Assembly: GCA_029940695.1 (NCBI GenBank)
Contig: JAPYUP010000005.1
Span: 1,120-65,119 of the forward strand
Length of the DNA: 64,000 bases
Direction: 5' to 3'
Source of the DNA: Candidatus Thalassarchaeaceae archaeon
GTDB taxonomy: Archaea > Thermoplasmatota > Poseidoniia > Poseidoniales > Thalassarchaeaceae
Each line of letters begins with the position of its first letter. The first letter of the stretch is position 1. The notes under the pieces were generated by a model. That model worked only from the letters and a program-made list of their open reading frames with translations. It did not search any database and was not told where the DNA came from. Below are positions 19,893-38,212 of this stretch, in pieces. The translations under genes and the position numbers were made by a program.

Positions 19893-22583
19893 TCAGTCAT
19901 CGTACTCGTTGTTGAGCGACTCGACCATCAGACGGTTCTCGGAACGAGAGCGGGCAAACAAGTAGAGCACGAGGAGCGAACCCACCACTATGACCGCAAT
20001 GGCCAGGACATCCTGCATCTCGTCGGAGAGTGCACCAACCCCCAGAGTGGAAGTCATCGTCAAATCCACGGGTTGTCCTGCGACTGGTAGGTCCTTCGGC
20101 TGCACTGTGATTGTGAAAGTATAGTCGTCCTCAGCGATCATCTCGTTTGGGGGCGTCACCCTGACCTTGACCTCTCTGGTTTCACCCGGGTCTAGTTCGA
20201 ACTCGTCGCTAATCACATCGACCGTCCATCCCCTGAGCGAATCGCTGGACAGGACTTCGACGTCCTCCACCGTATTGCCATGGTTTGAGACATAGAGGGT
20301 GAATTCAGAGTGCTCTGGATATGGAGCCTCCTTCTCGTCAGAGGACTCCAGTGTGAAGCGAAGGTCGTGAATGGTCCTGATGTCCACTGCGATATCGACG
20401 AAGGAGGGAATCTGGGCCGTGTTCTTCTTCGAAGTGACGCCTATCCTCAAGACTCCCGAAGTTCCGCTCTCGATTCCCTCTAGGACTTCGAACTCTATCT
20501 CGACGAGAACCTGGTTATTCGCGGGGACCCTGACGTCTCCTTCGACCTCGGAACCATCTACGCTGACGGTCCGGAGAACCGATGAGTCCATTCCTGTAAT
20601 CGAAATCACGACGTCATCGGCGCCGCCGTCCCCGGTGTTGGAAATCCAGAGAGTCAGCGTGGTGGAACCTCCTGGGGGTAGGGCCATGTTCATCAATTTC
20701 GGATCGTCCCCTGGATTCTCGAAAGCCACGGCCATGCTGTAGTTGTAGATGGAGACGATGACAGACACCCTGTCAATCATCAGAACCTCCGTTCCGACGA
20801 TGCCGATTCTGACTTCGAACTCCTCCGACTTGTTATCGGCGTTGTCCGAGACTAGGACTTCCAAATAGATGCGTGCGGTCTGCTCGGAATCGAGGGTTAC
20901 CAGAGTGACGTTGTTGCCCTCGAAGTCTTTGAATCGGGTCGGCCACTTGGTCTGTTCGCAGGTGTCGTTGATGTCTGGGTCGCAGGAGCTTAGTCCATAC
21001 GAATCCTGAATGTTGCCAGTGTTGGTTAGATCGATGGGAAAGGCAACCCATTGCGTGAACCTGCCAGTCTGGGAGTCTGAGGGGAAGTCCATGCTCCCGC
21101 TGTGAACCGGCGCGACCGTCACTATGACAGAGACCTCGTCATGAGTGGTTCCGGATGAGCTCACTATGAAAGTAATCGGGAACTCGGTGCCTGCTTTGCC
21201 GCTGGATGGGACAGTGATTTGCGCTTGCACGTACACCCTGTCGCAGTTTGTCGATGTCGTGCAGTGCCTGCCATCCACGGTAACGGAGTTCGTCGAAAGG
21301 TCCACCTGCCAACCAGGAATGAGGTCCTTGACTCCTAGGGCGTAGGTGTCTTGGCCGTTCCCGGTGTTCGTGACTTGGATTGAGGTCGACTCGGTGGCGC
21401 CTGGTTGGACGTTGCTCAGCGTCGGTTGGGTGAGCGAGAGTGAGGCATCTCGGACCTGCCCGAGAGTCACCCTGAGGATGGATTCACACCCTACGCTGCT
21501 GCCGGCTCGACCCTGGATGTAGACGTCAATCGTGCCGGGCTCGACGGAGTCGTCGGGAACTATGACAAAGTCGAAGATGGTCGAGTCCTGAGAGCCACCC
21601 GGCTCGGATAGCAGCCTGCTGGTAGGGGTGTCGAACTCCACCCAATCACTAATGTCGTATCCCTCAGCCATAGCAATCGCACTGACTGTCCAAGCCGTGT
21701 TGCCAGTGTTCACCAAAGAGAAGGAATTGGTTGCCGATTCTCCAGGGTCCAGCGTGTGAGAGGAGGCTTGCAACGAGGAGTCGCAGGTCTTCACCTCGGG
21801 AATCTTCAGGGTCAGTGGGATGCTGTCGTTGGCCTGATCGAGCGTGTTTGGGTCACTGGTCATGGTCGCCTCCATGGTGAAGCAGTGGTTGCCGGAATCG
21901 GTGGAGCTGCCATCGGGCAGATTCACCATCACGGTGGCTTCCTCCGACTCGCCCTCGCTCAGGGACATTTGCTGCGGATCTACACTGGCATCGAGGCCGT
22001 CCGAGTCGCAGTCGCTGGATGAGGTCATGCTGAGCTGAATGGTCTGATCGCCATCGGCCTCACCAGTGTTCTCGACGTCGACTATCCACTCGACCTCGTC
22101 TTCCTCTCCGTCATAGTTGATGGCGCCATTGCTGGGATTGGAATAAGTGAGCGTGACGGAGTACTGGCCACCGCCTTCGGCGGACGTAGTCACCTTGATA
22201 TCCCCGTTGGCAGTTTCTATTCCTGCAACTCCAGTAGCAGTCACCGTAGTCTCGCATTCTCCTGATGCTTGGTCGTTGACGCTCACCGTTAGCGTCCTGG
22301 CCTCTGAATCGCCTTCGTTCAAGGAGAATGGGGTCCCTCCGTTCTCGATTGACGAGGTGAAGCCGTTGCAGTCCGAGTCCTGCGAAGTGCTCATGGTTAC
22401 AGTCAGGTCCTCATCACCATCGTTGGTGATTGTGATGGTGTACTCGGCCGGGTCGTCTGTGGTGGCCTCCTTGGCCATGGAGTCCGCCGTCAAGAACAGG
22501 GAGGCCGCAGCTAGCACCGTTGGCGCGAGCAGTGAAACGAGAAGGAGGGCAGTGAAAATGGTCGCTGAGTCAGGCCTTCTCAT
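19893..22583 (-). CDS. Large secreted CARDB-repeat cell-surface protein with C-terminal TM anchor
   Basis: 896 aa with an N-terminal signal peptide (LLLVSLLAPTVLAAAS). Repeated ~100-aa modules carry V/I-x-N-T/H-G-N CARDB-like signatures (ITITNDGDEDL, VDVENTGEADG, IQVTNTGNGQD, IDLTNTGNIQD, LWISNTGDGGA, LYVSNHGNTVE). C-terminal hydrophobic helix AIAVIVVGSLLVLYLF plus a short tail. Lower GC than flanks. Confidence 0.7.
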   Translation of the reverse strand: MRRPDSATIFTALLLVSLLAPTVLAAASLFLTADSMAKEATTDDPAEYTITITNDGDEDLTVTMSTSQDSDCNGFTSSIENGGTPFSLNEGDSEARTLTVSVNDQASGECETTVTATGVAGIETANGDIKVTTSAEGGGQYSVTLTYSNPSNGAINYDGEEDEVEWIVDVENTGEADGDQTIQLSMTSSSDCDSDGLDASVDPQQMSLSEGESEEATVMVNLPDGSSTDSGNHCFTMEATMTSDPNTLDQANDSIPLTLKIPEVKTCDSSLQASSHTLDPGESATNSFSLVNTGNTAWTVSAIAMAEGYDISDWVEFDTPTSRLLSEPGGSQDSTIFDFVIVPDDSVEPGTIDVYIQGRAGSSVGCESILRVTLGQVRDASLSLTQPTLSNVQPGATESTSIQVTNTGNGQDTYALGVKDLIPGWQVDLSTNSVTVDGRHCTTSTNCDRVYVQAQITVPSSGKAGTEFPITFIVSSSGTTHDEVSVIVTVAPVHSGSMDFPSDSQTGRFTQWVAFPIDLTNTGNIQDSYGLSSCDPDINDTCEQTKWPTRFKDFEGNNVTLVTLDSEQTARIYLEVLVSDNADNKSEEFEVRIGIVGTEVLMIDRVSVIVSIYNYSMAVAFENPGDDPKLMNMALPPGGSTTLTLWISNTGDGGADDVVISITGMDSSVLRTVSVDGSEVEGDVRVPANNQVLVEIEFEVLEGIESGTSGVLRIGVTSKKNTAQIPSFVDIAVDIRTIHDLRFTLESSDEKEAPYPEHSEFTLYVSNHGNTVEDVEVLSSDSLRGWTVDVISDEFELDPGETREVKVRVTPPNEMIAEDDYTFTITVQPKDLPVAGQPVDLTMTSTLGVGALSDEMQDVLAIAVIVVGSLLVLYLFARSRSENRLMVESLNNEYDD

Positions 22584-22682
22584 CGAATGACCGACTCAAT
22601 CGCCCCTCTAAGGGCTTCGGGCACTGCGTGCGCCAATTATCGCGGTTCTGATAGGTGTTGCAAGGTCGTTGGTTAGTCGAGT

Positions 22683-25600
22683 TCACTCTCCCTTGTGATC
22701 GGGGTCGGGCACCCATTCCTGTTTGCTCGGGTCCCATAGCCAGCCAGGGTACTCCGAGAAGCGCTCCAGGTTCGGTTCACTCTGCTCGGCCTCTAGCTCG
22801 GCTTCCTGTTCGGAATCCCACCACTTCTCGTCTTCGTCTGTAGGATATGCATCATACTCAGTCGACTCCCGCCGCTTCCCGACTGAAGGCATCCGGTCCA
22901 GTAGGACTTTGAGGTTGCCACCAGACTTCTGGTAGAGTATGGCTGCGGCGCCAGCGAGTGTCACAATGAGAAGGATTGCGAGTCCAAAGACCCAAATCGG
23001 TGTCCCATCGTCCGAATCATCAGGGATCACGTCGATTTGCAAGCTGATGCTATGGCCGGAAACGTGCTCGGCATCTGCGAGCATCAACACCACCTCCCCA
23101 TCGGATCCCGAATTTGGGATGAAGGAGATCTGCACCGATCTCGTCTCACCCGGCTGCATCGTGACTAGGATACCATCCAGAATCCTAATGTTCCAACCAG
23201 TGGGCCCTTCGGAAACTAGACGATTTGAGACTACGGAGTTGCCGGTGTTCTGCAGCTCGAAGTACAGAGTCGTAGAGTACCCCTCGTGAGCCTCGTTCAT
23301 GTTCTGGAGCGTCCACGTGACCTCGTTCACGATTTCAACCAGGAGGGAGACGGTGTATCTTGACTCGATTCCACCGTCCGAGAGGACGAGGGTGATTTCG
23401 GGTTCGGAGCCTGCTTTCTCGTAGACTGGGATAACTATGGTGCACCACACAGTGGCTGTTTGGCCGGGAGTAATCTTTGAGGGGTTGACTGAGCATGTGG
23501 AGGACCAATCTTCACCGGGTAGCTCCATGCTCGCATCTGGCTGCCAGCTCGACGAACCGTCATTGGTGACCTTCCACGCCATGTCGAAGCCTGGAGCCCC
23601 GACAGGATGAGCTCCAGACCCCAATGGGGTATCGGACGATGAGCCGTTGGTGAAAGAGACCTCGTAGAAGGATATCGTCGGAACGGCGCTGGAGATGACT
23701 TGGAGAGTCCTGTTCCAATCAACAGAGAAGCCGTCGTCCGTTAGGAACCGAATCTCCACTAGACCGCCGGAGGCCAATCCGTTGCCCTGAATCGAGAAGG
23801 ACCATTCAGTTGATGAGCCTCGCTGTATGGAAACGTTGTCCAAGCCACTAGGAATCGTCCATCCCCCAGGCAGCGCTCTGTCTATCGGTGTCAGCAGCAA
23901 CTCACGGTTCCCCTGATTGGCGATCTGGAGGGTTATCTCGTGCAGGGCATCAGCGGTCACCTCTGACTCGGTGCCACCAGAAGTCGGTGTGAACTGGATG
24001 GAATCATAGACATCGATGACCAGGGGCAAGTCATATGTCCACGTATCAGAACTGACTCTGGATTTGACTACCAACTGGGCGTTGAAAGTCGCACCTGCGT
24101 CGATTAAGACCCCCGGCGGCTCGATGCTGATTCCCACAGAAATCGAGCCTTCCTTGCTTAGCGTTCCAGTGGATCCCTCAGCGGAGCCTGGGAATGGGCC
24201 GATGTCGTCGAAGCCGAGATTCCATCCGGCGGGGGAGACCAGTTCGACATCGTAGGTCTGGGCACCGTTGCCTTGGTTCCGTATCTCTACCTCCAAGTTG
24301 GTGTTCTCAAAGGAGTTCGCTGTAATCGACTCTCCGGGCAGCGTGACATCGGGTTGGGCTAGCACGGGAACGTCGAAGAAAATCTCCAACTGCGACTCGA
24401 TGTCGTACTCCACGTCGGTTGCGGTAACGACTATCACGTAGGTGCCGGGTTCTGGAGAGGCTGGGTGAACCAGTGTGAGATTGACAGTAGTTGACTCCGC
24501 TGGTCCCAGGTTGATGTTGAATGCGTCAAACGCCTTGAACCAGTCGAATGAGGCCCCGTCCCTGGACCTCACCGGGTCAGATGCGTCGATGGTGGCGTTG
24601 GTCTCGAACAGAGCCAAGTTGGTCATCACAATGGCCCAAGTGGTCGTAGTGTCCGTTGCATCGCCTAGCGTACTCCAAGGTAAGTCGGACGAGGCCTGAA
24701 TCCCGGGTGCGCTGACGGGCACGATTCTCACGAGGATGTTGTTTTCCTCGGAGAGTTCCTCGAGCTGGTCATTGGGGTCTATCTCAATCCTGATCTCTGT
24801 TTCGACTGCGAAGAAAGGGGTCCAGTCCCATTCCAGAAGAGCGTCCTCACCAGGGGACATCCCCAGGGTCTTGGTTCCGATGTGATTGCTGTTCACATAA
24901 GCAGAAACATGAACTTCTGGGAAGGAGCCAGAGCCTTGGTTGACGATGGAGACCGAGAACTGAGCCTCCTCTCCGACTTGGGGTATCGGTGTGGATATTT
25001 CGAACGAGCTAGGGATTACTGCGGGATCAGGGATCAGGTCGTTGACGTTGACCCCCCTGACCGCTATCGCAAATGGTTGGTAGGTCCTGCTTCCACCATG
25101 TGAGAAGTCCTTGACCTTGACGTTCCAGACACCTGTAGCAGCGGAGTCGATGAGGACGACTTCGACGTTGTTTTTGTTGTCCTTGGTCCCCCCTGTGGTC
25201 GACTTACCGTTGCTGAAGTCATTGCCAAAGTATGTGACCTGCCCGTCTGGAGAGGTGACCTCCAGATTCAGGTCGTTCCTCAACTGGGTATTGGACCAAG
25301 TCGACCCCGGATAGTCCGACCATGTGAGTACCACCTTTAGAGGCTCACCAGCACGGGTGACATCGAAGTTGTACTGCGCCAGCTGTCCGCTGGATAGACG
25401 TGATCTGTCATCCACATACGTCCCAATGTCACCATCGGGAACCAAAGTGTTGACGAGGTTCAGCCTCCCCCATCCTTCGTCTTCGTTGGGGATGTCACGG
25501 GTGCCCATGTCTACAGCACCGAGAATGAGCATAGCCTTCACCAGAGCTCCTTGAGGAGCCGGTCTCTCGGCAATCTCCATCAGGTACTCCCTGACTATTA

Positions 25601-27149
25601 CCGAGGCTCCGGCAGCAGCCGGCGTTGCCATCGAAGTTCCGCTATATTCCACATACCACTGATTGTTGAGATTGTTGGGTGCGTCCTCGGCCTCCTGTGC
25701 CCTGCAGGATCTCACATAGTCCCCAGGGGCAACTAGATCAGGCTTGATCCTGCCATCATCCGTGGGGCCTCTGCTGCTCCAGTAGTACATCTCGTCGGGT
25801 GAGTCATACCTGTTTACGTGAGCACCCACGGTAATCACGTTCTTCGCCGTCCCAGGAGGTGAGATCCCGTCATCCCTCTCGTTGCCCGCCGCGAACAGAA
25901 CCGTCATCCCCTGATAGGCCCAGTACTGATCCCAAGTGGAAGTACGATCGTCAGCGTCCTCCGCTTGGGTGGTGTAGTCGCCACCGGAGCCTAAACTCCC
26001 CCAACTGTTTGCGTGAAACCTAGCTCCACCCGAGTTGTAGGCGGTGCTTAGCAGCGTGTAGACCCCAGGTCCACCCAAAGTGCCCGTATCATCATCCTCC
26101 ATGGCCTGCAAGTAGAGTTCCGCCTCTGGGGCCACGCCCTCGTAGGTACCGGTTCGGAAGCCTGAGCCAAGGACCGTACAGGATACGTGGGTACCATGTC
26201 CATCGTTCGTGTCGGCTGTCGAACCATCGCCCGAGACGTCGATTCGCTGCACAATCCTATTGCCGAAGTCTCCATGGTCATGATCGATGCCGGTGTCCGC
26301 CACAGCAATCCTCTGACCGCTGCCGTTTAGGCCTGTGATGAATGTCGTCTCCGCTACGTCGACGCCCATGTGGGAACGGACTTGGTCGTTGAATATTGAG
26401 AGAGTGGGGGTGGGGGCGAGAAACGCGGTTTGCGGATGCATGGCGATGTCTATGGCTTCGGATGTCGACAGCAACCCGAAGTGGATGCCGCCCCCGGGGG
26501 ACCAAGGCTCTTCCAATGATAGGTGTGCCAAGTCGTTCAATGACCCCCCCAGTCCGAGTCCAGGAGTATCTAGTCGGTTGAGTTCCGCATCCTTCCAGCC
26601 TAGCAATTCGACCTCTGTGGAAGCATCAGGAGCGCGGTCCCATAGCAGGCTGTGGAGAAGCAGTGCGACAGGCACCTCGTGGCTCGAAGTAACGATGGAC
26701 AGGCCGCTAACGATCTCTAACTCCGCCCCAGTTCCCTGCACGAGGAAGCCAGAGGGCGGAATCGTCGATCGGATCGCCACATCGGCCGAGTCGGAAATCT
26801 CAATACGAGCGTCCCACAGACCGACCTCAGAGTCAATGAGGACGATTATGAGGTCGGGTCGAGGTGCCTTGAGACGGTCTGGAAGTTCAGTGCTCAGAAA
26901 GAGGCCCGAATCGGTGTAGATTCCGATTGAAGAATCGGCTTGAATTGGCCGTGAGGTCTCGGAACCAGACTGTATCGTCGGAGCACCGAGGTTCCTGATG
27001 CTGTTGGGATCCGGGGAGATTTCGATTCTAGTGACCTGCGGCTCAAGGGGGCTTGCTTCGTCAGAGTCGATATTCGCGTCATGGCTTGTTATCGGAGTGT
27101 AAGAGGCGAGCAGCAGGACTAGAATGAGTACCGAGACTTGCTTTTTCAT
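22683..27149 (-). CDS. Giant membrane-anchored subtilisin-like serine protease (peptidase S8) with CARDB-like repeat domains and an acidic Trp-containing cytoplasmic tail
   Basis: 1488 aa with signal peptide, then the S8 triad motifs DTGIDHDHGDF, HGTHVSC and GTSMATPAAAGASVIV. A long post-catalytic region carries repeated x-N-Q/T-G-N/S modules. TM helix (IWVFGLAILLIVTLAGAAAILY) precedes an ~85-aa cytoplasmic tail ...EDEKWWDSEQEAELEAEQSEPNLERFSEYPGWLWDPSKQEWVPDPDHKGE. Confidence 0.85.
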   Translation of the reverse strand: MKKQVSVLILVLLLASYTPITSHDANIDSDEASPLEPQVTRIEISPDPNSIRNLGAPTIQSGSETSRPIQADSSIGIYTDSGLFLSTELPDRLKAPRPDLIIVLIDSEVGLWDARIEISDSADVAIRSTIPPSGFLVQGTGAELEIVSGLSIVTSSHEVPVALLLHSLLWDRAPDASTEVELLGWKDAELNRLDTPGLGLGGSLNDLAHLSLEEPWSPGGGIHFGLLSTSEAIDIAMHPQTAFLAPTPTLSIFNDQVRSHMGVDVAETTFITGLNGSGQRIAVADTGIDHDHGDFGNRIVQRIDVSGDGSTADTNDGHGTHVSCTVLGSGFRTGTYEGVAPEAELYLQAMEDDDTGTLGGPGVYTLLSTAYNSGGARFHANSWGSLGSGGDYTTQAEDADDRTSTWDQYWAYQGMTVLFAAGNERDDGISPPGTAKNVITVGAHVNRYDSPDEMYYWSSRGPTDDGRIKPDLVAPGDYVRSCRAQEAEDAPNNLNNQWYVEYSGTSMATPAAAGASVIVREYLMEIAERPAPQGALVKAMLILGAVDMGTRDIPNEDEGWGRLNLVNTLVPDGDIGTYVDDRSRLSSGQLAQYNFDVTRAGEPLKVVLTWSDYPGSTWSNTQLRNDLNLEVTSPDGQVTYFGNDFSNGKSTTGGTKDNKNNVEVVLIDSAATGVWNVKVKDFSHGGSRTYQPFAIAVRGVNVNDLIPDPAVIPSSFEISTPIPQVGEEAQFSVSIVNQGSGSFPEVHVSAYVNSNHIGTKTLGMSPGEDALLEWDWTPFFAVETEIRIEIDPNDQLEELSEENNILVRIVPVSAPGIQASSDLPWSTLGDATDTTTTWAIVMTNLALFETNATIDASDPVRSRDGASFDWFKAFDAFNINLGPAESTTVNLTLVHPASPEPGTYVIVVTATDVEYDIESQLEIFFDVPVLAQPDVTLPGESITANSFENTNLEVEIRNQGNGAQTYDVELVSPAGWNLGFDDIGPFPGSAEGSTGTLSKEGSISVGISIEPPGVLIDAGATFNAQLVVKSRVSSDTWTYDLPLVIDVYDSIQFTPTSGGTESEVTADALHEITLQIANQGNRELLLTPIDRALPGGWTIPSGLDNVSIQRGSSTEWSFSIQGNGLASGGLVEIRFLTDDGFSVDWNRTLQVISSAVPTISFYEVSFTNGSSSDTPLGSGAHPVGAPGFDMAWKVTNDGSSSWQPDASMELPGEDWSSTCSVNPSKITPGQTATVWCTIVIPVYEKAGSEPEITLVLSDGGIESRYTVSLLVEIVNEVTWTLQNMNEAHEGYSTTLYFELQNTGNSVVSNRLVSEGPTGWNIRILDGILVTMQPGETRSVQISFIPNSGSDGEVVLMLADAEHVSGHSISLQIDVIPDDSDDGTPIWVFGLAILLIVTLAGAAAILYQKSGGNLKVLLDRMPSVGKRRESTEYDAYPTDEDEKWWDSEQEAELEAEQSEPNLERFSEYPGWLWDPSKQEWVPDPDHKGE

Positions 27150-27230
27150 CTGAGTACTCCCCTATTCAGATTCAATTTGAGGCTATGGGTTCCACGGTAA
27201 TCCTGCCGTGTGATTGGTTGGTTGGTTGGA

Positions 27231-27791
27231 CTAGAAGACTCTGAACGGAGCCTCGTCCACGAACACCTCCCTAGTCCAATCGCCGACCTTGTGAGTCCAT
27301 CTCTCCGAGCCATCGCCACCATAGTATTGGTAGTTCAGGATGATTTCGATCGTGTATTGCTCCCATACCGATTGGCCGACGACAATCATCTCTAGATTGT
27401 CTCCAGCGATGGAGGTGTGGGCGGCGATTTCGTCTATAGCGAAGTCAGAACGGCCTTTTTCAATCCCGTCTGCATCGAGGAACCTCATTGTCAGGATGAC
27501 ATCTTCTAGGGTCCTGCTGCCCTTGTTGTCCAATTCAGCGAGTACGACATGGCCGGAACCTGCCTGCATGTAGGCGACATCCACATCGACATTGTCATAG
27601 GGGACAACCCATATTAGGACGAACAAAGAAGCTGAGAGGATTAGGAACGCGGTAATCGAGGCGAAGACCACGCGAGTTGGAGTGATGACTGCGGCAGCGC
27701 GCTCCCCGATCTTCTCGAGAATGACGTGGGCGGCCTCGGAGTCCTGGTCCTCACCAGTTTGGGTACCCACCTTCTCCAACAGGCCCATCAT
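27231..27791 (-). CDS. Small single-pass membrane protein (type II topology) of unknown function
   Basis: 186 aa with one TM helix (VVFASITAFLILSASLFVLIWVV) after an acidic N-terminus. Start ATGATG overlaps the stop of the upstream giant gene (operon). Confidence 0.55.
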   Translation of the reverse strand: MMGLLEKVGTQTGEDQDSEAAHVILEKIGERAAAVITPTRVVFASITAFLILSASLFVLIWVVPYDNVDVDVAYMQAGSGHVVLAELDNKGSRTLEDVILTMRFLDADGIEKGRSDFAIDEIAAHTSIAGDNLEMIVVGQSVWEQYTIEIILNYQYYGGDGSERWTHKVGDWTREVFVDEAPFRVF

Positions 27792-30700
27792 CCATCACCC
27801 CATAACGTCGCAACCAAAGTGAAGATGCCAGAAGAAAGCGGCTCTGGGGCCATGATGTGACTTGTGGTTCCAGAGAAACCGGGAACCATGTTGAGCAGAG
27901 ATAGGTCGGATGCCAGGCCGTTGACACCCAAAGTCGTACCAGAGGGTACTCCACCCGTCGTCTGTGCATCGAGCAAGACACCTCTGAGGTCGAAGTCCCT
28001 GTTGTTGAAAGTCGCGGAAGCCCTCGCAGACACGATGATGCGCCCGCCCTGAACCTCCTCGATCTCTATGACGCTGTAGGCCCCAATAATCTCCCTAACA
28101 TGAATCGTCGCGCTCTTCAGATTCTCTCCTAAAGCCTCCATCTCTTCGAGGACGATCGGCGGCATGGTTGGGACGTTCGTTGCGCGCATGTACAACCTGT
28201 CGACACCATCTCCTCCCGACCTGACGTTCAGGCCATACGACGTAGTGGGCTTGATGACCAGCCTGTCCGACATGCCCTCGGCCAGCAGAACGATGTCCCC
28301 CCTGCTGTTGATAGCCCTGCCGAGCGCCTCAATGTACAACGACATCCCCTCACGAGAGGCAGAGAAGTCGAGGATTGGCATTCCTTGGAAGGCTATGTTT
28401 TGGGTGATGTCGAAGTTCAGGTCCGGTTCGGTCGTCAGATTCATCGAACCCGGAACTTCGGTCAGGAACATGGTTGCCGGCCACCACGATCCATCCATCC
28501 ACTGCATTTGCTGGAGCATGATTGAGCCTACACCAAAGCCGTCGGTCCTGTACTGCTCCGGAACCGTCATGTCAATCGAGAGCGCTGTGCCTAAACTAGC
28601 TTGGATCTCGACTGACTCCGGGATGTCCTGAACCATCATCTCAGTCCGACTGCCTGCCTCCCTGTCAATGAGCAGGGCGTGGAACCAATCAAGTCTGGTG
28701 GACATCCTGTACAACGTAGAGGTGGAGACCTCGGTGATGCCTCCCACTGTATCGATATTGAAGACCGAGTCGAGTAAGAGCGAGGTCGAAACACCTGGCT
28801 CAAGGCCTTCGAGAGTAACGAAGAGGTCTTGCCCGTTGATGTCCTTGTAAACAAAGATGAACTCGGAATGCTGCGGTTTCCATCCATCGAGGCCGAGGCT
28901 GACAGCCCAGCTCTGGCCATTAGTCGTAGCCGTTCTTGAGATGGACAGGTCGATGGTGGGGGGTAGATTGGGTATCCAAGTCCTGAAGTGGAATCCATCG
29001 GCTATTCCCGAAGGAGCGGAGTTTAGGGACATCCCATGTACCCAATCGGGGTCTTCAACCACTTGCTCTCCCATTGAAGAATCCACCACTAGGTCGAACT
29101 CGGTGTCAGCCTCCATTCCGAGTCCGAAAGAGAATCCGTCCTCCCCCGATACCGATCCGGTCGATATGTCAGTGGTTATGCCTGCGAGAACGCTATTGAC
29201 CGAACGTCCTAGGTCGGCAAAGCCGCCGATGAAGAAGGCTATTCCCGACAGGCCGCTCGAGGAATTTAACTGCGGGATTACCAACGATGGCCCAGATTGT
29301 GAGCCGGTGGGGATCTGCAGTGACACCGTCGATGGTAGGGGATCAATCTCAGCGAGGACCGTTAGGGGTGACCTTTCGCTGGTAGGAGCGTTTCCAACGT
29401 TTATCATAAACGGGTTCGAGGTCCCGAAGGTCGCATAGGCACTACCCATACCGGCTGAGCCAGAGGCCCCCTCTACCTGAGGTGGAATCCAACCTACTTC
29501 ACTTAGACCGGAGATCCTCGAAGAGAGGGTGGAGGCATCGGTAGAAGGGTCGTGATGGAATAGGAAATGGTCTCCGGACATCGACAGTGGTGATGACGAA
29601 TTGCTCAACTGGACCTCTATCTCAGTGATTTCAGACGGGGAAGACCAGGAGAAGGCATTCCCTGAGGTGGTTGTGAACGCAGCTGGGAACCCCGAGATCC
29701 TCGCAGCTTGACTTTGCTTCCCATCCATCCCGGTGTACACTATTGAGGCGATTGGGGTAGAAGCACTATACTCCATCCCATTTGGGGTGATTCTGACTGA
29801 GATATTGTCAGGGAGGTCTGATAGCATGATTGATTGGTAGGACGATCCGTTAATTTGACCGGTATCGTGATTGATGAAGGTTACAGACAGAGACTTGTTC
29901 GACTGAGTATCAAGACTGATTGATTGTTCGTCAGAGTTGTCTGAATCTACAAAGGAGAAGGCCTGAAGCATGCTCAATCGGATGCTAGCGGCGACTGGTA
30001 CCAGTGGGTCTACGGGACCGTGGTCGGTTTGTATGGTATTCAGACCGCGATCTTGGGCAAGAATAACATGATCACCCGGTACAATTGGGTGTTTGGAGGA
30101 CCCTATCTGCATACTTAAAGATTGGATGGGATAAAAGGACCTGCTTTCTCTCCAGTTGTCTGTGAGCAAGAGGTGGAAGGACCGGCCGTCAAGTCCGTCT
30201 CCACCACCCACCCCTCCACCAATAACCTCGACCATCGAAGAGGGGATTTCATTGAGGACGTTGCCAACGTCGAGGAACAAATCGACTATGTTGAGGATTA
30301 CTGAGTCCATAATCTTGGAAAAGAAATCGAGGTTTTCCGTAGAATCGAGTGAGGTGTCGGGGTCTTCTGATCCCCCTAGGCCGAATGAGCCGAACACAGC
30401 AATTGCAGTTGGTATGGAACTAGCAGTGATTTTTATTCTCCTGTGGTCCTCCTCCAGTCCACCCCTAGTAAACCAAGACGTGTAATCCACTGACTCTAGA
30501 GACTGCTCTGAGCGCAAGACGACTAGGCTATTGGGAGGGTATGCTGGATTGATGGGCAGGGTAGGGTCGTCGACGTTCTGACTCGTGTCCCTAGTGAAGT
30601 TCTTGATGCCGATGATCAGACCGAGTTTCTCAGGTAGACCCCCGGGCAACTCGGGGCTGTCTGCTGAGCCGAGCATTCTGAAAATCCTGCTGATCTCGTT

Positions 30701-32167
30701 ATTGGACAACGAGCCTGCCGGCATGCCTCTGAACCAACCCTTTGTGTCGGTAACGTTGCCAAAGTTCCCGTCTGACTCAGATGGGGGTAGATTCGATCTG
30801 TTCTCATGGAAGTGGATGTGCAAGTCAGCCCTCTCATCGGCCCAGTACTCGATTGTGGTGAGGCTGCGCTCGCCCTCCATGCCCGTCGAGGTAGGGAGCA
30901 CGCTGTCGGTTCGGATGACGACCTCGGCCGAGTTTGGGATTACGACCGAATCGCGATGTGGATGAAGCCTAGCCTCTATGTAGGCAAGTTCCCAAATTTC
31001 CCTGTTCCCATTCTCGTTAGGTGGTGAAAAGTGCAGGTAGCCGAATCCTGCAGACACACCGCATGATATCTCTATCGAAGGCTTGGAATGGAGTTCGGAA
31101 GAGTTGTAGCGATTCGGGCAGTCGGACTGGCCGGAGTTTTCCAATCTCAGGGCAAATGGTGACGATATTGCCGCGAATGCGATGCCAGACTCAATGATAT
31201 CCTCCGTTCCGGTATTGAGAAGGCCCAAAGTCAGAATGGTAATCAAATCGATACCTGCGGATGAGGTGTCAAAGTAGAAACGCTCGATTCCAACCTCGAA
31301 CTCAAAGTCGTACGGTGCCGTGGTAAATCTCGAGTCAATCACCCAGATGTAGCTCTCACCATCCCCAAGAGCCAGGATTGAATCCGAACCCGAGTATGAC
31401 ATGGCCTTGATGATTGAGACCTGCAGCGAATCAAGGTCATCCCAGTCTGGGTCGTTCCGACTGTCCTCCAGAACCTGCACCGAGAACACAATGCCCGGTT
31501 CGATCCAAAGCGTGTCGCCCACAAGTCCCCAGCCTCCAATAAACTCCCACGAAATCTTCAGGCCGACCTGGATGTCGTCGTCACCGTCATCATCGATGTC
31601 GATTGCGTGGAGTAGCGGCTCCGTTTGCAGGTCGAACAAGGAAAGCAGGGATGCACTGAATGTTACCACCTCAACCTGTTCGGTGACGTTGCCGCTGCTG
31701 TTAGTATACTGTGTCCAAATCACGTAGTCCGTGATATTAAACAGCGTCTGCCATATGTTGTCGACGAAGCCGGGGGGTCTGCTACTGGAATCAATCAGCA
31801 GTTCGTACGGTGCTGGATGTATGGGAGTTGGGGGTGAGGTCTCGAGCATGGCAGCTCCCTCAACCGCTAATCCGACCAAGGATAGGGGGTCCGAGGAGTC
31901 GGACGGCCCCACAGCTTCACGAACAGCATCGATTCTCGGCTGAGCGAGGGTAGAGACCGAGTTTGAGTTCAGGATCTCCTGTCGCTCAGAGAGCATGTCA
32001 GTCAGTTCTTCAAGAATCTCGAAGTCTTGGGATTCTATCCTAACCTCGCCATTGACGCTGGAGAGAGGGGAAAACAGGGTAAGAACTAGCATTGCGGTCA
32101 GTAGTAGGGTGAGGTGGGTGGGACCACGAGGTACCCGAGAGTCGCCTTCAACATCGCTCATATCCAA
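27788..32167 (-). CDS. Giant (about 1459 aa) secreted/N-terminally anchored protein with no recognisable domains
   Basis: Start is TTG at 32167 or ATG at 32161. N-terminal hydrophobic segment LTLLLTAMLVLTLFSPLSS, then a Ser/Thr/Asn/Asp-rich sequence without catalytic motifs. GGAGGTG Shine-Dalgarno lies inside a perfect hairpin just upstream. Lowest GC of the window (about 40% in spot checks). Confidence 0.7.
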   Translation of the reverse strand: MDMSDVEGDSRVPRGPTHLTLLLTAMLVLTLFSPLSSVNGEVRIESQDFEILEELTDMLSERQEILNSNSVSTLAQPRIDAVREAVGPSDSSDPLSLVGLAVEGAAMLETSPPTPIHPAPYELLIDSSSRPPGFVDNIWQTLFNITDYVIWTQYTNSSGNVTEQVEVVTFSASLLSLFDLQTEPLLHAIDIDDDGDDDIQVGLKISWEFIGGWGLVGDTLWIEPGIVFSVQVLEDSRNDPDWDDLDSLQVSIIKAMSYSGSDSILALGDGESYIWVIDSRFTTAPYDFEFEVGIERFYFDTSSAGIDLITILTLGLLNTGTEDIIESGIAFAAISSPFALRLENSGQSDCPNRYNSSELHSKPSIEISCGVSAGFGYLHFSPPNENGNREIWELAYIEARLHPHRDSVVIPNSAEVVIRTDSVLPTSTGMEGERSLTTIEYWADERADLHIHFHENRSNLPPSESDGNFGNVTDTKGWFRGMPAGSLSNNEISRIFRMLGSADSPELPGGLPEKLGLIIGIKNFTRDTSQNVDDPTLPINPAYPPNSLVVLRSEQSLESVDYTSWFTRGGLEEDHRRIKITASSIPTAIAVFGSFGLGGSEDPDTSLDSTENLDFFSKIMDSVILNIVDLFLDVGNVLNEIPSSMVEVIGGGVGGGDGLDGRSFHLLLTDNWRESRSFYPIQSLSMQIGSSKHPIVPGDHVILAQDRGLNTIQTDHGPVDPLVPVAASIRLSMLQAFSFVDSDNSDEQSISLDTQSNKSLSVTFINHDTGQINGSSYQSIMLSDLPDNISVRITPNGMEYSASTPIASIVYTGMDGKQSQAARISGFPAAFTTTSGNAFSWSSPSEITEIEVQLSNSSSPLSMSGDHFLFHHDPSTDASTLSSRISGLSEVGWIPPQVEGASGSAGMGSAYATFGTSNPFMINVGNAPTSERSPLTVLAEIDPLPSTVSLQIPTGSQSGPSLVIPQLNSSSGLSGIAFFIGGFADLGRSVNSVLAGITTDISTGSVSGEDGFSFGLGMEADTEFDLVVDSSMGEQVVEDPDWVHGMSLNSAPSGIADGFHFRTWIPNLPPTIDLSISRTATTNGQSWAVSLGLDGWKPQHSEFIFVYKDINGQDLFVTLEGLEPGVSTSLLLDSVFNIDTVGGITEVSTSTLYRMSTRLDWFHALLIDREAGSRTEMMVQDIPESVEIQASLGTALSIDMTVPEQYRTDGFGVGSIMLQQMQWMDGSWWPATMFLTEVPGSMNLTTEPDLNFDITQNIAFQGMPILDFSASREGMSLYIEALGRAINSRGDIVLLAEGMSDRLVIKPTTSYGLNVRSGGDGVDRLYMRATNVPTMPPIVLEEMEALGENLKSATIHVREIIGAYSVIEIEEVQGGRIIVSARASATFNNRDFDLRGVLLDAQTTGGVPSGTTLGVNGLASDLSLLNMVPGFSGTTSHIMAPEPLSSGIFTLVATLWGDG

Positions 32168-32252
32168 GTCGCACCTCCTAGAGGTGCGCTATATGGTATT
32201 GCCCTGCCCGTACTCGGGACTATCGGAGTTTGAACCGAATACCGGAACGCGG

Positions 32253-34460
32253 TCATCCAAGGCTCACGAGCTCCTCGGAACCACAGTAAGGACAGTTAGT
32301 GTAGGCAGAGTCTATGCCTTCAGGAAGCTCTAGGTCAAACGGTCGACTGCATGACGAACACTCCCTCCTGACCTTCCTGTCGACAATTGTCTCAGGCTCG
32401 GAATCTTCTGGCTCCTCAGTAAGACCGGTCAGTACATCGTCCTCGGTCGGCGACAAGCCCGCTCGCTCGAGGGGGTATTGAACTGAAATCTGATCTGCCG
32501 TATCCATGTCAATCGGCGATACCATGTCAATCGTCTGTCGGGACGGGGGTTGGAAGGGAGACTCATCGGAACCCCCCCACATTGCAACTTGGGCCCCCTT
32601 CAACGATGATTCTGAACTAGGATCATCAGCCCCCTCGTCTTCAGAGATGTTCGAAACCCTACGCTTGACTGCTAGGTTGAATGCCACGAAACCGCCAAGG
32701 GACAGAAGCAGGAGTACAATGACTGCGATTAGAGCGATCGAAAACGGACCCAGCCCCCCCTGGCCATCCCCCTCACTCTCGACAATTACCAGCATCTCAG
32801 CCACGGACACCAGTCCCGCTTCGTTCTCCACCTGGCAGACGACGTATTGCGGACCTACGGTCGCGAAGATGTAAATGACTTGAGGGCCGCTGAATTGTAC
32901 CTCATTAGCTGTTCCCTGTTCAAAGATCCACGTGTACTCGAGCCTTTCGGACTCCGAGTCCTCGGCCATTAGATGAAACTCTGTTGGAACTCCGACTTTG
33001 ACCTTCAACTCTTCTTGTAATGTGCCGATAGCTGGGGGGGTAACGTCGATGATGGTGATGGTAACATCGTCCTGCGAGCTCCTGCCGGCCCTGTCGTTCA
33101 CACGCAGGGAGATGACATGATTACCGGCAGCATAATCTGTGGAGATGTCGAAACTCAGGGTCGAACTGGGTTCAGTGACGCTGTAGTTCGATTCGATTAC
33201 CACGTCGTCGAGTAGCCAGTCAAGACTATCGACACCCCAATTGTCAGTGAACGTGCCACTTAGGACGATGTTCTCGCCGAATCCCTTGAGGATCTGTCCC
33301 CCTGCTCCAATCGTCACAATTGGGTCGGAGATATCCTGAACCTGAATTTCTCTGGTTGAACTAGCGCTTCTGGAGTCTACTGACATCACGGATAGCCTGA
33401 TTGTATAGTTTCCTGGACTGTCCCATGAATGGGAAGTGGTCGGCCCTGTAGCATCTGCTAAACCATCCCCGTCGATATCCCATGAGAATCCAGATTCAGG
33501 GATCTGGTTGGACTTGTTTGGAGTATCTAGTGCTGAGAGGGTGATGGTTGCACCGACGTCAACCGAATCCAATGAAGGCTCGCTGGAGATCGTTGGGTCA
33601 AGTACGGGGGTGAGGGTGATGGTTACCGTCACACCCGCAGGTGCGGTGCCCGCACCTCCCCCACCTGGTCCTGGACGATTGTCTACAATGACATAGATAT
33701 CCTCGCCATTCGTATTGGTGGCCTCCCACGGAAGGTACCTCTCGTTGGTCACGAGGAGCATATCAGCGGAAACTATCCTCGAGGCAGCGGACCAGTTGAC
33801 GCTGGGGGAGTAGAGAGAGTAGGCAGATTCGGTCATCACGAAGATATCGGGATAGCCCTCCATCGTCCTCGCGTGAATCTCAACGAACGTTCCGTCGTCC
33901 ACGGAGAACGGGCCGTACGCTATCGCGTAGCCACCCACCCCTACCCGATGGATTGAATCCGAGAGAGTGTACTGCTGGGGGAAGACCGTCCCGCCATCGA
34001 GGGAGACTTCCGCGGATTGGCCGCCTTGTGCTCCTTCTCCTCCGTCTTGGGGATGTTCGCGGTTGTCCAGAACCAGATACCATCTCGTCTCCTCTCTATC
34101 GCTGGGAACCGTCCAATGCCATTCGCCCGAGCCGCTGAATAACTCGAATACCGATTCGCTCTGCCAAATGGAAGTCGAGCGGTATGACTGCTCGTTCTGG
34201 TATACTGAAACGCTGTTCGCTGAGAACATCAGGATGTCAATCTCCCGATTAGTCGACACTTCAAAGAACAGGGTTGTGCCGGGCTTCTGGATTCCAAGAT
34301 CGACCCTGACGCAAGTCTGGTCTGCCATGCTCCAATTGTCAGGAAGCGAGGCAAGTTCGGAGTTGGCGCACGAGATGACTCCCTTCGGACTGGCGTTAAC
34401 TGTCGAAGCCAATGAGCTCAGGACAAGGATGCCCACAACGACGACGTATGCCCAACGCAT
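32253..34460 (-). CDS. Surface protein with PKD domains, single TM helix and a cytoplasmic C-terminal C4 zinc ribbon
   Basis: 735 aa with signal peptide. PKD-type motif FSWDIDGDGLADATGPTTSHSWDSPGNYTIRLSV plus a second Ig-like repeat. TM helix FSIALIAVIVLLLLSLGGFVAF, an acidic cytoplasmic linker, then terminal CSSCSRPF...x14...CPYCGSEEL. Confidence 0.75.
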   Translation of the reverse strand: MRWAYVVVVGILVLSSLASTVNASPKGVISCANSELASLPDNWSMADQTCVRVDLGIQKPGTTLFFEVSTNREIDILMFSANSVSVYQNEQSYRSTSIWQSESVFELFSGSGEWHWTVPSDREETRWYLVLDNREHPQDGGEGAQGGQSAEVSLDGGTVFPQQYTLSDSIHRVGVGGYAIAYGPFSVDDGTFVEIHARTMEGYPDIFVMTESAYSLYSPSVNWSAASRIVSADMLLVTNERYLPWEATNTNGEDIYVIVDNRPGPGGGGAGTAPAGVTVTITLTPVLDPTISSEPSLDSVDVGATITLSALDTPNKSNQIPESGFSWDIDGDGLADATGPTTSHSWDSPGNYTIRLSVMSVDSRSASSTREIQVQDISDPIVTIGAGGQILKGFGENIVLSGTFTDNWGVDSLDWLLDDVVIESNYSVTEPSSTLSFDISTDYAAGNHVISLRVNDRAGRSSQDDVTITIIDVTPPAIGTLQEELKVKVGVPTEFHLMAEDSESERLEYTWIFEQGTANEVQFSGPQVIYIFATVGPQYVVCQVENEAGLVSVAEMLVIVESEGDGQGGLGPFSIALIAVIVLLLLSLGGFVAFNLAVKRRVSNISEDEGADDPSSESSLKGAQVAMWGGSDESPFQPPSRQTIDMVSPIDMDTADQISVQYPLERAGLSPTEDDVLTGLTEEPEDSEPETIVDRKVRRECSSCSRPFDLELPEGIDSAYTNCPYCGSEELVSLG

Positions 34461-34500
34461 CGAGCGACCGTTCGCCCTTGCCTTATGAACGGTATCGCAG
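34461..34500 (-). promoter_or_regulatory. Putative promoter of the surface-protein operon: TATA-like TTCATAAGG centred about 25 nt upstream of the ATG, enclosed by a 7-bp inverted repeat
   Basis: Minus-strand sense reads ACCGTTC-ATAAGGCAAGGGC-GAACGGT. The perfect 7-bp inverted repeat lies at 34468-34474 and 34488-34494. Spacing to the ATG at 34460 fits a leaderless archaeal transcript. Confidence 0.3.
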
Positions 34501-34535
34501 TCGCGTTCGGCTCCTGATTGTGCCGGACAAGCGAA

Positions 34536-34817
34536 TCAGAGGTTTCGAGGGATTGGGGTTGGTGGGAACCAACGCAGGACGACCACGTCGCCGATAGAGC
34601 GCACCCAGTTCCATGGAATTGCCACATGAGTCCGCCCTTCCACGAGACCTTCTGGGGGGTCCGAGACGAAGATGTGCGTGCACGACCACTCGTTGACGTC
34701 AATCACGGTGTCGTGCACCGTACCAAGCAACCTGCCATCGGGGATTATCACGGGTAGTCCCCTTATGTCGGAGGCGTGACGGTCTGCCATCGGTGGCTGC
34801 CGCTCAGCATCGCGCAT
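34536..34817 (-). CDS. PRC-barrel domain protein
   Basis: PRC-barrel-like sequence IIPDGRLLGTVHDTVIDVNEW...VAIPWNWVRSIGDVVVL. The listed ORF (to 34934) overlaps L15e, so internal Met starts at 34817 or 34790 are preferred. Confidence 0.5.
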   Translation of the reverse strand: MRDAERQPPMADRHASDIRGLPVIIPDGRLLGTVHDTVIDVNEWSCTHIFVSDPPEGLVEGRTHVAIPWNWVRSIGDVVVLRWFPPTPIPRNL

Positions 34818-34839: not shown

Positions 34840-35427
34840 TCACTTGCCCCTGTTCTTGTTCGCCTTGAGGCTCGGTCGGAGCTTCTCCGCACCCTTGCCC
34901 TTGTTATGCAGTCCTCGCCCTCTCTTTCCGGCACTCGTCTTGCCTCTGTGGGCCCGACCGCGGTGGCTGGAGCCTTTTGCTACCCAGCCCAAGTCCTTGT
35001 CGGACTTGATTGCTGGGTGAGAAGGATCAACGAGAATAACCTCGTAGAACTTGTTCTTTCCGTCCTCTCCAACCCAGTAAGAGTTGAGGACTTCGAGGTT
35101 TGGGTAGCGCGTGCTGGTTCGCTCCTCGGCTATTCTCTGAATTGACTTGGCCATCGTGATTTTCTTGACACCCGCCTTGGATGGCTTCCTCTTCATGTGG
35201 ACCTTTCCCTTGCGCAGACCTCCGCGACGCACTCTGGTGCGAACTAGGACGATGCCTTGCTTGGCCTTGTAGCCGACTCTGCGGGCGGCATCCAACCGTG
35301 TCGGTCGCTCGATGCGCTGGAACACGGGTTCCTTGCGCCATCCCGCCATCCTAGCAGTGCGGTATCGAGGAGGAAGGTTCGCCTTCGGTTGTTTCCAGAC
35401 ATTGCGAATGTGTTGATGCAGACCCAT
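34840..35427 (-). CDS. rpl15e: 50S ribosomal protein L15e
   Basis: 195 aa with MGLHQHIRNVWKQP... and the basic C-terminal tail, clear L15e family. Confidence 0.9.
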   Translation of the reverse strand: MGLHQHIRNVWKQPKANLPPRYRTARMAGWRKEPVFQRIERPTRLDAARRVGYKAKQGIVLVRTRVRRGGLRKGKVHMKRKPSKAGVKKITMAKSIQRIAEERTSTRYPNLEVLNSYWVGEDGKNKFYEVILVDPSHPAIKSDKDLGWVAKGSSHRGRAHRGKTSAGKRGRGLHNKGKGAEKLRPSLKANKNRGK

Positions 35428-36008: not shown

Positions 36009-36164
36009 TCCAACCAGTGGAGCGACTTCCTCCTTATCTCGCTTTCCGGAGACCCTTGCATAATCGACTCGGTGACTCCCCCCCATCCCTCAAGGTTAAG
36101 AAGTCCAAGAAAGGCACTTCGTGACCGTAGGCAGCGATGCCGGGGATGCACTGGGGTAAGACGG

Positions 36165-37309: not shown

Positions 37310-37321
37310 GTGTCTCTAGGG

Positions 37322-38190: not shown

Positions 38191-38212
38191 AGCGTTTCTC
38201 GTGCGGTTTCCG

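Follow-up and report, generated by a model that had tools for sequence, protein, structure and literature searches.

Why should a protein displayed on the surface of an archaeal cell carry a small zinc-ribbon domain at the far end of its cytoplasmic tail? The question is raised by a gene on a 64,000-nucleotide (nt) stretch of contig JAPYUP010000005.1 of a Candidatus Thalassarchaeaceae archaeon (the window hereafter), where a complete coding sequence at 32253..34460 on the (-) strand, with its stop codon at 32253-32255, encodes a 735-amino-acid (aa) PKD / zinc-ribbon envelope protein. An earlier sequence-only reading of this DNA had outlined a signal peptide, a PKD/Ig-like ectodomain, one transmembrane (TM) helix, an acidic linker and a C-terminal four-cysteine motif, and this architecture was confirmed by hydropathy, Pfam and AlphaFold. 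The answer that we favor, at roughly even confidence, is that the ribbon would serve as a docking knob on a flexible leash, tying a surface assembly to a partner in the cytoplasm. All features of the gene described below lie on its (-) strand.

The terminal ribbon and its acidic leash

The predicted four-cysteine zinc ribbon comprises residues 695-735 (32256..32378). Four of the seven cysteines of the protein, at positions 701, 704, 723 and 726 (codons 32358-32360, 32349-32351, 32292-32294 and 32283-32285), make up the motif C701-x2-C704-x18-C723-x2-C726, i.e., CSSC-x18-CPYC, or CSSCS-x17-CPYCG with its flanking residues; the sequence-only reading had recognized the four terminal cysteines and undercounted the spacing by three, as x14. 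The protein therefore shows the two CxxC knuckles, about 15-20 residues apart, that characterize zinc ribbons, and the beta-hairpin of the ribbon fold is present by prediction, with AlphaFold modeling residues 692-735 as a four-stranded mini-domain (strands 696-700, 707-711, 718-722 and 729-733) at a per-residue confidence (pLDDT) of 75-90.

The conservation of this pattern was followed through three sets of relatives. Among the best 120 of more than 650 homologues, the 116 that reach the C-terminus, at 42-99% identity, all have CxxC-x18-CxxC without any variation in spacing. The motif was also intact in 81 of 81 complete genes of the fetched loci, one more gene having an ambiguous base (N) at a Cys codon, and the four cysteines with their spacing were retained in 91 of 119 relatives from marine group IIa (MGIIa), at 28-36% identity. 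The conservation in orthologues on which the sequence-only reading had made its proposal depend holds, accordingly, in marine group IIb (MGIIb) and in most of MGIIa. In an alignment of 110 MGIIb orthologues, residues C701, C704, F708, P713, T721, C723, P724 and C726 were invariant, and the mean frequency of the top residue was 0.70 in the ribbon, 0.45 in the linker and 0.49 in the TM segment. The chance of finding at least four of seven cysteines within the last 35 residues is 1.6e-4. As judged from these alignments, the ribbon is under strong purifying selection and is not a chance pattern.

By profile comparison the ribbon is of a generic, Zn_ribbon_8-like kind and would be expected to bind zinc. 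The ribbon of the window scored 22 bits against Pfam Zn_ribbon_8 (PF09723; cutoff 34.4) and 17.3 bits against TIGR02605 FmdB (cutoff 31.3), while Zn_ribbon_8 was matched by all 34 diverse orthologue ribbons (best E 4.4e-7) and three orthologue clusters (P0103, P0113 and P0322) carry a precomputed PF09723 match. Searches of the ribbon against Pfam and NCBIfam returned sub-threshold generic ribbons only, and the best match of its profile among PDB sequences had an E of 0.039. With Zn_ribbon_8, the FmdB CxxC_CxxC_SSSS family of TIGR02605 and the archaeal small CPxCG proteins, it shares two CxxC knuckles, the second of them CPxCG, and a short beta-ribbon; unlike these generic ribbons, which are mostly free-standing small cytoplasmic proteins, it ends a 735-aa type-I membrane protein. 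The name RpoP (Rpo12), attached to one orthologue record at JGI, was rejected. The corresponding model NF001607 gave 17.8 bits versus a cutoff of 89, the PDB match to Rpo12 had an E of 0.13, and the RpoP family consists of small free-standing proteins of ~45-50 aa, whereas the ribbon described here is the tail of a membrane protein.

A search with a profile of the ribbon that used no word index also covered 1.84 billion representative proteins. All single-stretch C-terminal CxxC-x18-CxxC matches were full-length orthologues or evident fragments of them, and the full-length ones (736-869 aa) all followed the signal peptide / TM / ribbon plan. Because only orthologues and fragments were returned, the ribbon family is, as far as profile searching reaches, private to the orthologues of the PKD protein and present on no other protein architecture. 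Multi-stretch matches to 'CxxCxKxF' resemble C2H2-type arrays and were treated as spurious, their sequences being uninspected. The suggestion that the same ribbon might recur on other envelope proteins found no instance, although a different zinc module was found on the tail of the neighboring S8 protease, as described below. When the open reading frames (ORFs) of the window were scanned for CxxC..CxxC pairs, only a cytoplasmic protein of 362 aa and an antisense ORF judged spurious came up. The 362-aa protein (57214-58302, (-) strand) is Lys/Glu-rich, has a central CPHC-x21-CWDC motif at 57631-57717 and showed faint matches to haloarchaeal DUF7575 and TRASH only; it is unrelated to the ribbon of the PKD protein.

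On which side of the membrane the ribbon lies was examined through several topology rules. Beyond the signal peptide, the sole hydrophobic segment of the protein is the single TM helix at residues 572-598 (32667..32747), with a Kyte-Doolittle peak of 2.9 and an AlphaFold helix over 572-602, and the basic triplet KRR directly follows it. Within 15 residues of this helix, the number of lysines and arginines (K+R) averaged 0.6 on the N-terminal side and 2.5 on the C-terminal side in the 110 orthologues, the C-terminal side being the richer in 106 of them. The conservation of N-x-S/T sequons was confined to the N-terminal part of the protein, with the stalk sequon N315-K-S retained in 110 of 110 orthologues, four other sequons in 74-92 orthologues and the single tail sequon in 4 of 110. 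The signal peptide and the PKD domains likewise point to an extracellular N-terminal part. Because the positive-inside rule, the sequons and the signal peptide with the PKD domains agree, the ribbon would be cytoplasmic by every topology rule available, which is where the sequence-only reading had placed it.

Between membrane and ribbon runs the cytoplasmic leash (residues 599-694; 32379..32666), which starts with the basic juxtamembrane KRR and continues as an acidic disordered linker. Residues 607-694 hold 23 aspartates and glutamates (D+E) versus 3 K+R, for a net charge of -20, and AlphaFold leaves residues 601-691 unstructured (pLDDT ~30). The linker had been correctly described as acidic; its length is ~95 aa rather than ~110 aa, and among lineages it ranges from ~95 to ~220 aa with its motifs retained. 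Those motifs are Q..MWG...FQPP and D.LL..L, in which Q624, M627, W628 and L677 are at least 90% conserved. Counterparts can be aligned between the two groups: the aromatic-Gly motif is Q..MWG in MGIIb and AAIYG in MGIIa, the F[QR]P motif is FQPP and NAGFRP, respectively, and the Leu-rich motif is D.LL..L and AALAAF, while the long-linker forms of both groups have the extra motif G[IV]S[LI]P.

The mean net charge was -22 for the whole tail and -2.1 for the ribbon. As both are acidic, protein binding is favored over nucleic-acid binding, and the latter is unlikely for this ribbon; of the roles put forward in the sequence-only reading, that of a protein dock or anchor is the best one. A disordered, multi-motif acidic leash with a folded terminal knob is a docking or tethering layout and not that of a nucleic-acid binder.

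These properties bear on the possibility that the protein is a transmembrane signaling device, in which the ectodomain would sense a ligand or be clipped by the S8 protease, the tail would be freed by intramembrane proteolysis and the ribbon would act on RNA polymerase or nucleic acid. The best, albeit weak, ribbon matches are of transcription type (RpoP/Rpo12, Brz, NrdR, TFIIB and Elf1), an orthologue bears the RpoP name mentioned above, and a membrane protease is encoded within the same gene block. However, those matches are all sub-threshold and generic, the strong acidity of ribbon and tail argues against signaling via nucleic acid, the conserved block holds no site-2 protease or regulator, and each block gene has its own constitutive-looking conserved promoter. 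Altogether, signaling seems very improbable. A zinc-binding anti-sigma factor (ZAS) was also considered and rejected, as the N-terminus is a signal peptide, the H-x3-C-x2-C pattern is absent and the zinc module is C-terminal.

The ectodomain and the protein family

The ectodomain was modeled by AlphaFold, from the 110-sequence alignment, with confidence up to residue ~562 (pLDDT mostly 80-95). The signal peptide at its start (residues 1-24; 34389..34460) was recognized by hydropathy, with cleavage predicted after MRWAYVVVVGILVLSSLASTVNA (between VNA and S), and the model has an N-terminal helix at low confidence in this region. It is followed by an extracellular head of two tandem jelly-roll beta-sandwich domains (residues ~28-285; 33606..34379, AlphaFold model). 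The head is the most conserved part of the protein, with a top-residue frequency of 0.74-0.77 and invariant positions that include C31/C50, W114-H-W116 (WHW) and D132-N..H136-P, and a separate model of it again consisted of two beta-sandwiches (pLDDT 79, pTM 0.76). Residues 28-285 had no match in Pfam, and Foldseek returned weak tandem-sandwich matches, namely the SIDT1/2 ectodomain, botulinum HA70 and ColG collagen-binding domains, with TM-scores of 0.2-0.37; neither Pfam nor Foldseek indicated a catalytic family for the head. On the strength of the models, the head is read as a ligand- or partner-binding unit carried by a three-PKD stalk.

The stalk itself (residues ~290-562; 32775..33593) comprises three PKD/Ig-like domains, identified by Pfam and modeled at pLDDT 85-95. 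PKD_4 was matched at residues 299-373 with 50.6 bits versus a gathering cutoff of 27, and PKD at 487-552 with 61.3 bits versus a gathering cutoff of 23.5, so that the protein belongs among the PKD domain proteins (PF00801 / PF18911) with both scores above their thresholds. The third Ig-like unit, K319L-like_PKD at 396-470, scored 25.5 bits, just below its cutoff of 27. Matches of the stalk among PDB sequences were the ColH PKD domain and KIAA0319L, and a Foldseek search of the full-length protein against the PDB returned generic Ig-domain arrays only.

The full-length search that supplied the more than 650 homologues was complemented by a scan of one genome per species of the Genome Taxonomy Database (GTDB), in which relatives were encoded in 118 GTDB species genomes, all of them Poseidoniales. 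The gene is a core, single-copy one that encodes a type-I envelope glycoprotein of the Poseidoniales (marine group II archaea). The annotation of its orthologues goes no further than "PKD domain-containing protein" or "hypothetical", and a literature search for papers on the protein family or the gene cluster found none. Attachment as a PGF-CTERM / archaeosortase substrate was rejected, given that the protein has no PGF motif and continues for 137 residues beyond its TM helix. A pair of paralogous secreted proteins of 276 aa encoded 3' of ftsZ (37310-38140 and 38201-39031, both on the (+) strand), which had no Pfam or NCBIfam match, does end in PGFGL[LF][AS]GLG[AT]LALAS and an Arg-rich stretch, as in archaeosortase signals of the PGF-CTERM-like kind. 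The usual surface anchor of this organism thus differs from the TM-plus-tail arrangement of the cluster proteins.

The envelope block and a second zinc module

The PKD gene opens a block of five envelope genes, all on the (-) strand. It is followed in all lineages by the gene of a 1459-aa secreted or N-anchored protein (27788..32167), for which no match was found in Pfam, NCBIfam or PDB sequences, and then by genes for a 186-aa type-II membrane protein (27231..27791) that is conserved in MGIIa and has a weak FxLYD-domain match, for a 1488-aa S8 subtilase that also contains a proprotein-convertase P domain and CARDB (22683..27149; Pfam and topology) and for an 896-aa Ig-like / choice-of-anchor-T protein (19893..22583), which combines a signal peptide and a TM helix with a short tail. 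The nuo operon comes next in the window. On the other side, an 84-aa PRC-barrel protein of the CdpB-like family (34536-34790, (-) strand) is encoded between the PKD gene and the ribosomal protein L15e gene (34840-35427, (-) strand), beyond which ftsZ (36072-37280, (+) strand; TIGR00065, 378 bits) is divergently placed, 1.6 kb from the PKD gene. The genes of the 1459-aa and 186-aa proteins overlap by 4 nt, which is likely to reflect translational coupling, and the two products may be a secreted giant and its anchor. All five envelope proteins (19893-34460) are extremely acidic, with 13-16% D+E and ~5% K+R.

The order shared among loci is L15e, an 84-86-aa PRC-barrel gene, sometimes an MBL-fold gene, the PKD gene and then the ~1459-aa, ~186-aa, ~1490-aa S8 and ~900-aa Ig-like genes. 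This order is common to MGIIb loci at 43-57% identity and to MGIIa loci at 28-29% identity, and since the divergent branch is the Poseidoniaceae, the block is a core locus that is order-wide in the Poseidoniales and present in both families. The PRC-barrel gene is found upstream of the PKD gene in every lineage, as its immediate or next-but-one neighbor, and the L15e, PRC-barrel and PKD genes stay linked in both MGIIa and MGIIb. At one MGIIa locus (L085) the large gene of the 1459-aa type was called as three pieces.

Synteny across both families down to 28% identity does away with the 'island' of the sequence-only reading, and with it the notion that the PKD protein is an ordinary variable adhesin in horizontally acquired DNA whose terminal Cys pattern arose by chance or as a lineage-specific oddity. 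In favor of that notion, PKD proteins are common as adhesins and GC content at 28-34 kb (0.53-0.54) is slightly lower than in the flanks (0.56-0.60), a difference that does not indicate recent transfer. Against it, the synteny is order-wide, the head is conserved and not diversifying, and the cysteines and their spacing are invariant and unlikely to have clustered by chance; we regard it as refuted.

The upstream regions of the block genes were also compared. The PKD gene is preceded by a conserved promoter-like element (34461..34515) with a TATA-like TTCATAAG at 34482-34489, 22-29 nt before the ATG, a distance that fits a leaderless mRNA. The two arms of the inverted repeat CCGTTC...GAACGG flank the TATA-like TTCA[AT]AAG, a third copy of GAACG lies farther upstream, and the string GAACG-N6-GCGATAC[CG][GA]TTCA[AT]AAGG-N3-GGGCGAACGG is near-invariant in ~55 orthologous upstream regions. 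The 55 nt before the start are far more conserved than the protein and are held even at ~41% protein identity; in the window the element occurs once. It is probably the promoter of a leaderless mRNA, and the inverted repeat may be an operator that overlaps it.

A second promoter-like element precedes the 1459-aa gene (32168..32206, (-) strand), where CAGGGCAATACCATATAGC is followed by the palindrome GCACCTC-TAG-GAGGTGC. Within the 85-nt gap before that gene, the CAATACCATATAGC box is equally conserved and the palindrome after it is perfect and contains a Shine-Dalgarno-like GGAGGTG, the element being conserved across ~25 loci. Some lineages retain the palindrome with other bases, e.g., ACCTA..TAGGT in L039. 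Because it is kept with different bases, the palindrome at the translation start suggests an RNA hairpin or a protein-binding site. The S8 protease gene has a third element (27175-27192, (-) strand; GAACCCATAGCCTCAAAT, ~26-43 nt before the start), with its own conserved TATA-like AACCCATAGCCTCAAAT and a G-rich Shine-Dalgarno-like run after it. Each large gene of the block thus seems, from these conserved elements, to have its own promoter. The PKD gene had been credited with the only promoter-like element found, a claim to which the elements of the 1459-aa and S8 genes are contrary, and we found nothing in favor of its proposed part as organiser of the cluster.

Another member of the block reaches into the cytoplasm. 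The S8 protease (P domain, 27 bits versus a cutoff of 21) is a type-I protein with a TM helix at residues 1381-1409 and an acidic cytoplasmic tail of ~80 aa (22686-22922). In the window this tail ends in the Trp-rich motif EYPGWLWDPSKQEWVPDP (~22686-22760), and the same kind of end, [FY]x[DE][YH]PGWLWDxxxExWVxDP (EYPGWLWDPxxEEWVPDP type), was found in the window lineage and its relatives, at 30 loci. In Thalassarchaeum-type MGIIb and in MGIIa the tail ends instead in C-x2-C-x10/11-C-x2-C-G-A-R-Y-H-x2/7-C-x4/9-C-x2-C, a C4HC3 pattern with an invariant CGARYH. This finger was matched below threshold only (Prok-RING_1, E 0.003; C1 domain, E 0.0035; PHD fingers), and a profile-profile comparison with the ribbon (hhalign) gave a probability of 6%, i.e., the two are unrelated. 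A word-indexed search with the S8 zinc-finger profile returned only 12 short proteins of 53-104 aa, which are probably fragments. Of the two tail ends, the finger seems to be ancestral and the Trp motif to have replaced it. With eukaryotic furin/kexin the protease shares S8 catalytic and P domains, a TM helix and an acidic cytoplasmic tail, and with PA-TM-RING proteins the order of ectodomain, TM helix and cytosolic cross-brace zinc finger; it differs from both in being archaeal and in a finger that stays below threshold, and no ubiquitin-type system is implied.

The ribbon of the PKD protein has been lost naturally in one abundant clade of Poseidoniaceae. In 27 of the 119 MGIIa relatives (clusters P0361-P0387) the protein has 723 aa and ends just before the ribbon. 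Two independent assemblies show TGA at the first Cys codon and, after this stop, a decayed, frameshifted relic that is identical in both (loci L086-L088, at about 10170-10320 / 12170-12320), with GKPFSVN in frame and AIPPYSS...FFER* in another frame, where intact relatives have CGKPFSVN...ACPSCGS..LFER*. All four Cys codons are lost in this clade, while the linker motifs are kept and the S8 protease has the C4HC3 finger. The ribbon is therefore dispensable in this clade and cannot be called indispensable. When the two tails were considered jointly, a PKD-tail ribbon accompanied an S8-tail Trp motif at 30 loci and an S8-tail zinc finger at 24 loci, including the MGIIa locus L089; the absence of the ribbon accompanied a zinc finger in the clade of L088, and no sampled locus lacked both the ribbon and the zinc finger. 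In this small sample, the combinations are compatible with a partial redundancy of the two zinc modules.

The block also invites comparison with the surface layer of Sulfolobales. As in SlaB, a beta-sandwich stalk has a C-terminal TM helix and is encoded beside the gene of a ~1400-aa protein; unlike the PKD protein, SlaB contains a coiled coil and has practically no domain in the cytoplasm, and the two are unrelated in sequence. The PKD protein could be a surface-layer anchor or stalk for the 1459-aa protein, after the manner of SlaB and SlaA, with the ribbon as a minor accessory that has no specific partner, e.g., a zinc-stabilised cap that would shield the tails or bring them together (homo-oligomerisation). 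Such a role would suit a stalked membrane protein that adjoins a giant domain-less secreted protein in all lineages, a gene that is core and single-copy as expected for an envelope building block, and a clade that lost the ribbon yet kept the PKD protein. Nevertheless, the 186-aa membrane protein, with its 4-nt gene overlap, is the more obvious anchor of the 1459-aa protein, for which nothing that points to a lattice was found, and a passive cap would not account for a spacing that never varies, for 70% column identity across hundreds of lineages, for the linker motifs or for the zinc module of the S8 tail. We consider this alternative doubtful, though deserving of some weight.

Weighing a docking role

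In the docking reading, two jelly-roll sandwiches on the outside would form a binding head on a three-PKD stalk, and on the inside a basic juxtamembrane patch would lead through an acidic disordered leash with motifs to a folded zinc-ribbon knob. The ribbon and the linker motifs would tie the surface assembly of the five-gene block to a partner in the cytoplasm, and intracellular events would thereby be linked to the positioning or assembly of the surface complex, with the PKD protein acting as a constitutive envelope component.

Division or cytoskeletal machinery would be the most concrete candidate for the partner, modeled on CdpC (HVO_0399, DUF7093), the membrane anchor of FtsZ1 in Haloferax volcanii, in which the N-terminus binds the membrane and a disordered linker of 243 aa leads to a C-terminal C4 ribbon of 43 aa, the ribbon binding FtsZ1 with a dissociation constant (KD) of ~0.1 uM (bioRxiv 10.64898/2026.07.16.738847). 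The discovery of CdpC came through its interaction with the PRC-barrel protein CdpB1, and its remote relatives in Thermoplasmatota are multi-ribbon proteins without the linker (bioRxiv 10.64898/2026.07.16.738847). By description, the PKD protein resembles CdpC in its membrane attachment, in a long disordered linker with a conserved stretch and in a C-terminal C4 ribbon of ~43 aa. The ribbon is the most conserved part of CdpC, and both proteins show fast sequence evolution around a fixed domain plan; the PKD gene, moreover, has a PRC-barrel gene as its upstream neighbor. In contrast, CdpC binds the membrane by an amphipathic helix and a C3H ribbon, with neither TM helix nor ectodomain, whereas the PKD protein is attached by a TM helix after a 545-aa ectodomain, and no sequence similarity was detectable between the two. 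CdpC may thus be taken as an architectural precedent only for the tail.

Other known proteins offer partial parallels. Bacterial ZipA likewise has one TM helix, from which a flexible linker, long and charged or P/Q-rich, leads to a small C-terminal globular domain that docks the cytoplasmic polymer FtsZ; it differs in being bacterial, in having its N-terminus outside with almost no ectodomain and in a C-terminal domain of another kind than a zinc ribbon. In another group of prokaryotic membrane proteins (Pfam zinc_ribbon_2 / DZR), mostly of unknown function, a cytoplasmic zinc ribbon at the N-terminus precedes the TM helix and the extracellular domain. Like the PKD protein, these join a cytoplasmic ribbon via one TM helix to an extracellular domain; unlike it, they are type II proteins with the ribbon next to the membrane and no long disordered leash.

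Several observations weigh against docking in general, or against the division machinery as the partner. No docking partner was identified for the ribbon, its topology comes from rules rather than experiment and the AlphaFold models contain no zinc. The invariant residues of the ribbon are mostly those needed by the fold itself, so that its conservation shows no binding face, and the abundant MGIIa clade without the ribbon keeps the remaining protein and tail. With regard to CdpC, DUF7093 was absent from the Pfam matches of the ribbon and of the whole tail at E up to 10, and from both the match list of the window ribbon and the listed 25 families that the 34 ribbons matched most. PRC-barrel genes are common beside translation genes (bioRxiv 10.1101/2023.03.28.534520), and a separate conserved promoter lies between the PRC-barrel gene and the PKD gene; for these two reasons their adjacency may mean nothing. 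Additionally, the two loci that diverge most (L084 and L085) do not have ftsZ as a neighbor.

Given the missing DUF7093 link, the PRC-translation adjacency, the intervening promoter and the non-adjacent ftsZ, the proposal that the tail anchors the division machinery amounts to an architectural analogy joined to weak guilt by association, and as such would be unlikely to hold. An extended form of it, in which an interchangeable C4 ribbon and S8 C4HC3 finger would hook the surface assembly onto FtsZ / PRC-barrel division machinery in a trans-envelope coupling, is to be judged improbable in its turn.

Among planktonic archaea, those of marine group II rank with the most abundant; none has been cultured, and their envelope and cell biology are known from genomes alone. 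The locus described here, a core block of giant surface proteins found throughout the order, has no functional annotation; two of its proteins extend long tails with conserved zinc modules into the cytoplasm. The linkage of a cytoplasmic zinc ribbon to one TM helix is in itself familiar, mostly with the ribbon at the N-terminus; what is new here is a type-I envelope protein whose long disordered leash terminates in the ribbon and whose core locus also encodes a protease with a zinc-finger tail. The clade that lost the ribbon and the lineages that exchanged the finger for the Trp motif provide material for comparison, which phylogenetic profiling could exploit for finding the partner. Docking of the ribbon onto a machine of the cytoplasm, if it takes place, would reveal the means by which an archaeon, be it wall-less or S-layered, links the assembly of its surface to processes within the cell, and would extend the very recent finding of small archaeal zinc ribbons as cytoskeleton anchors. 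Should the division machinery prove to be hooked by the two zinc modules, the coupling system would stand as a transmembrane counterpart of haloarchaeal CdpC, and an archaeal surface layer would for the first time be linked physically to the division ring.

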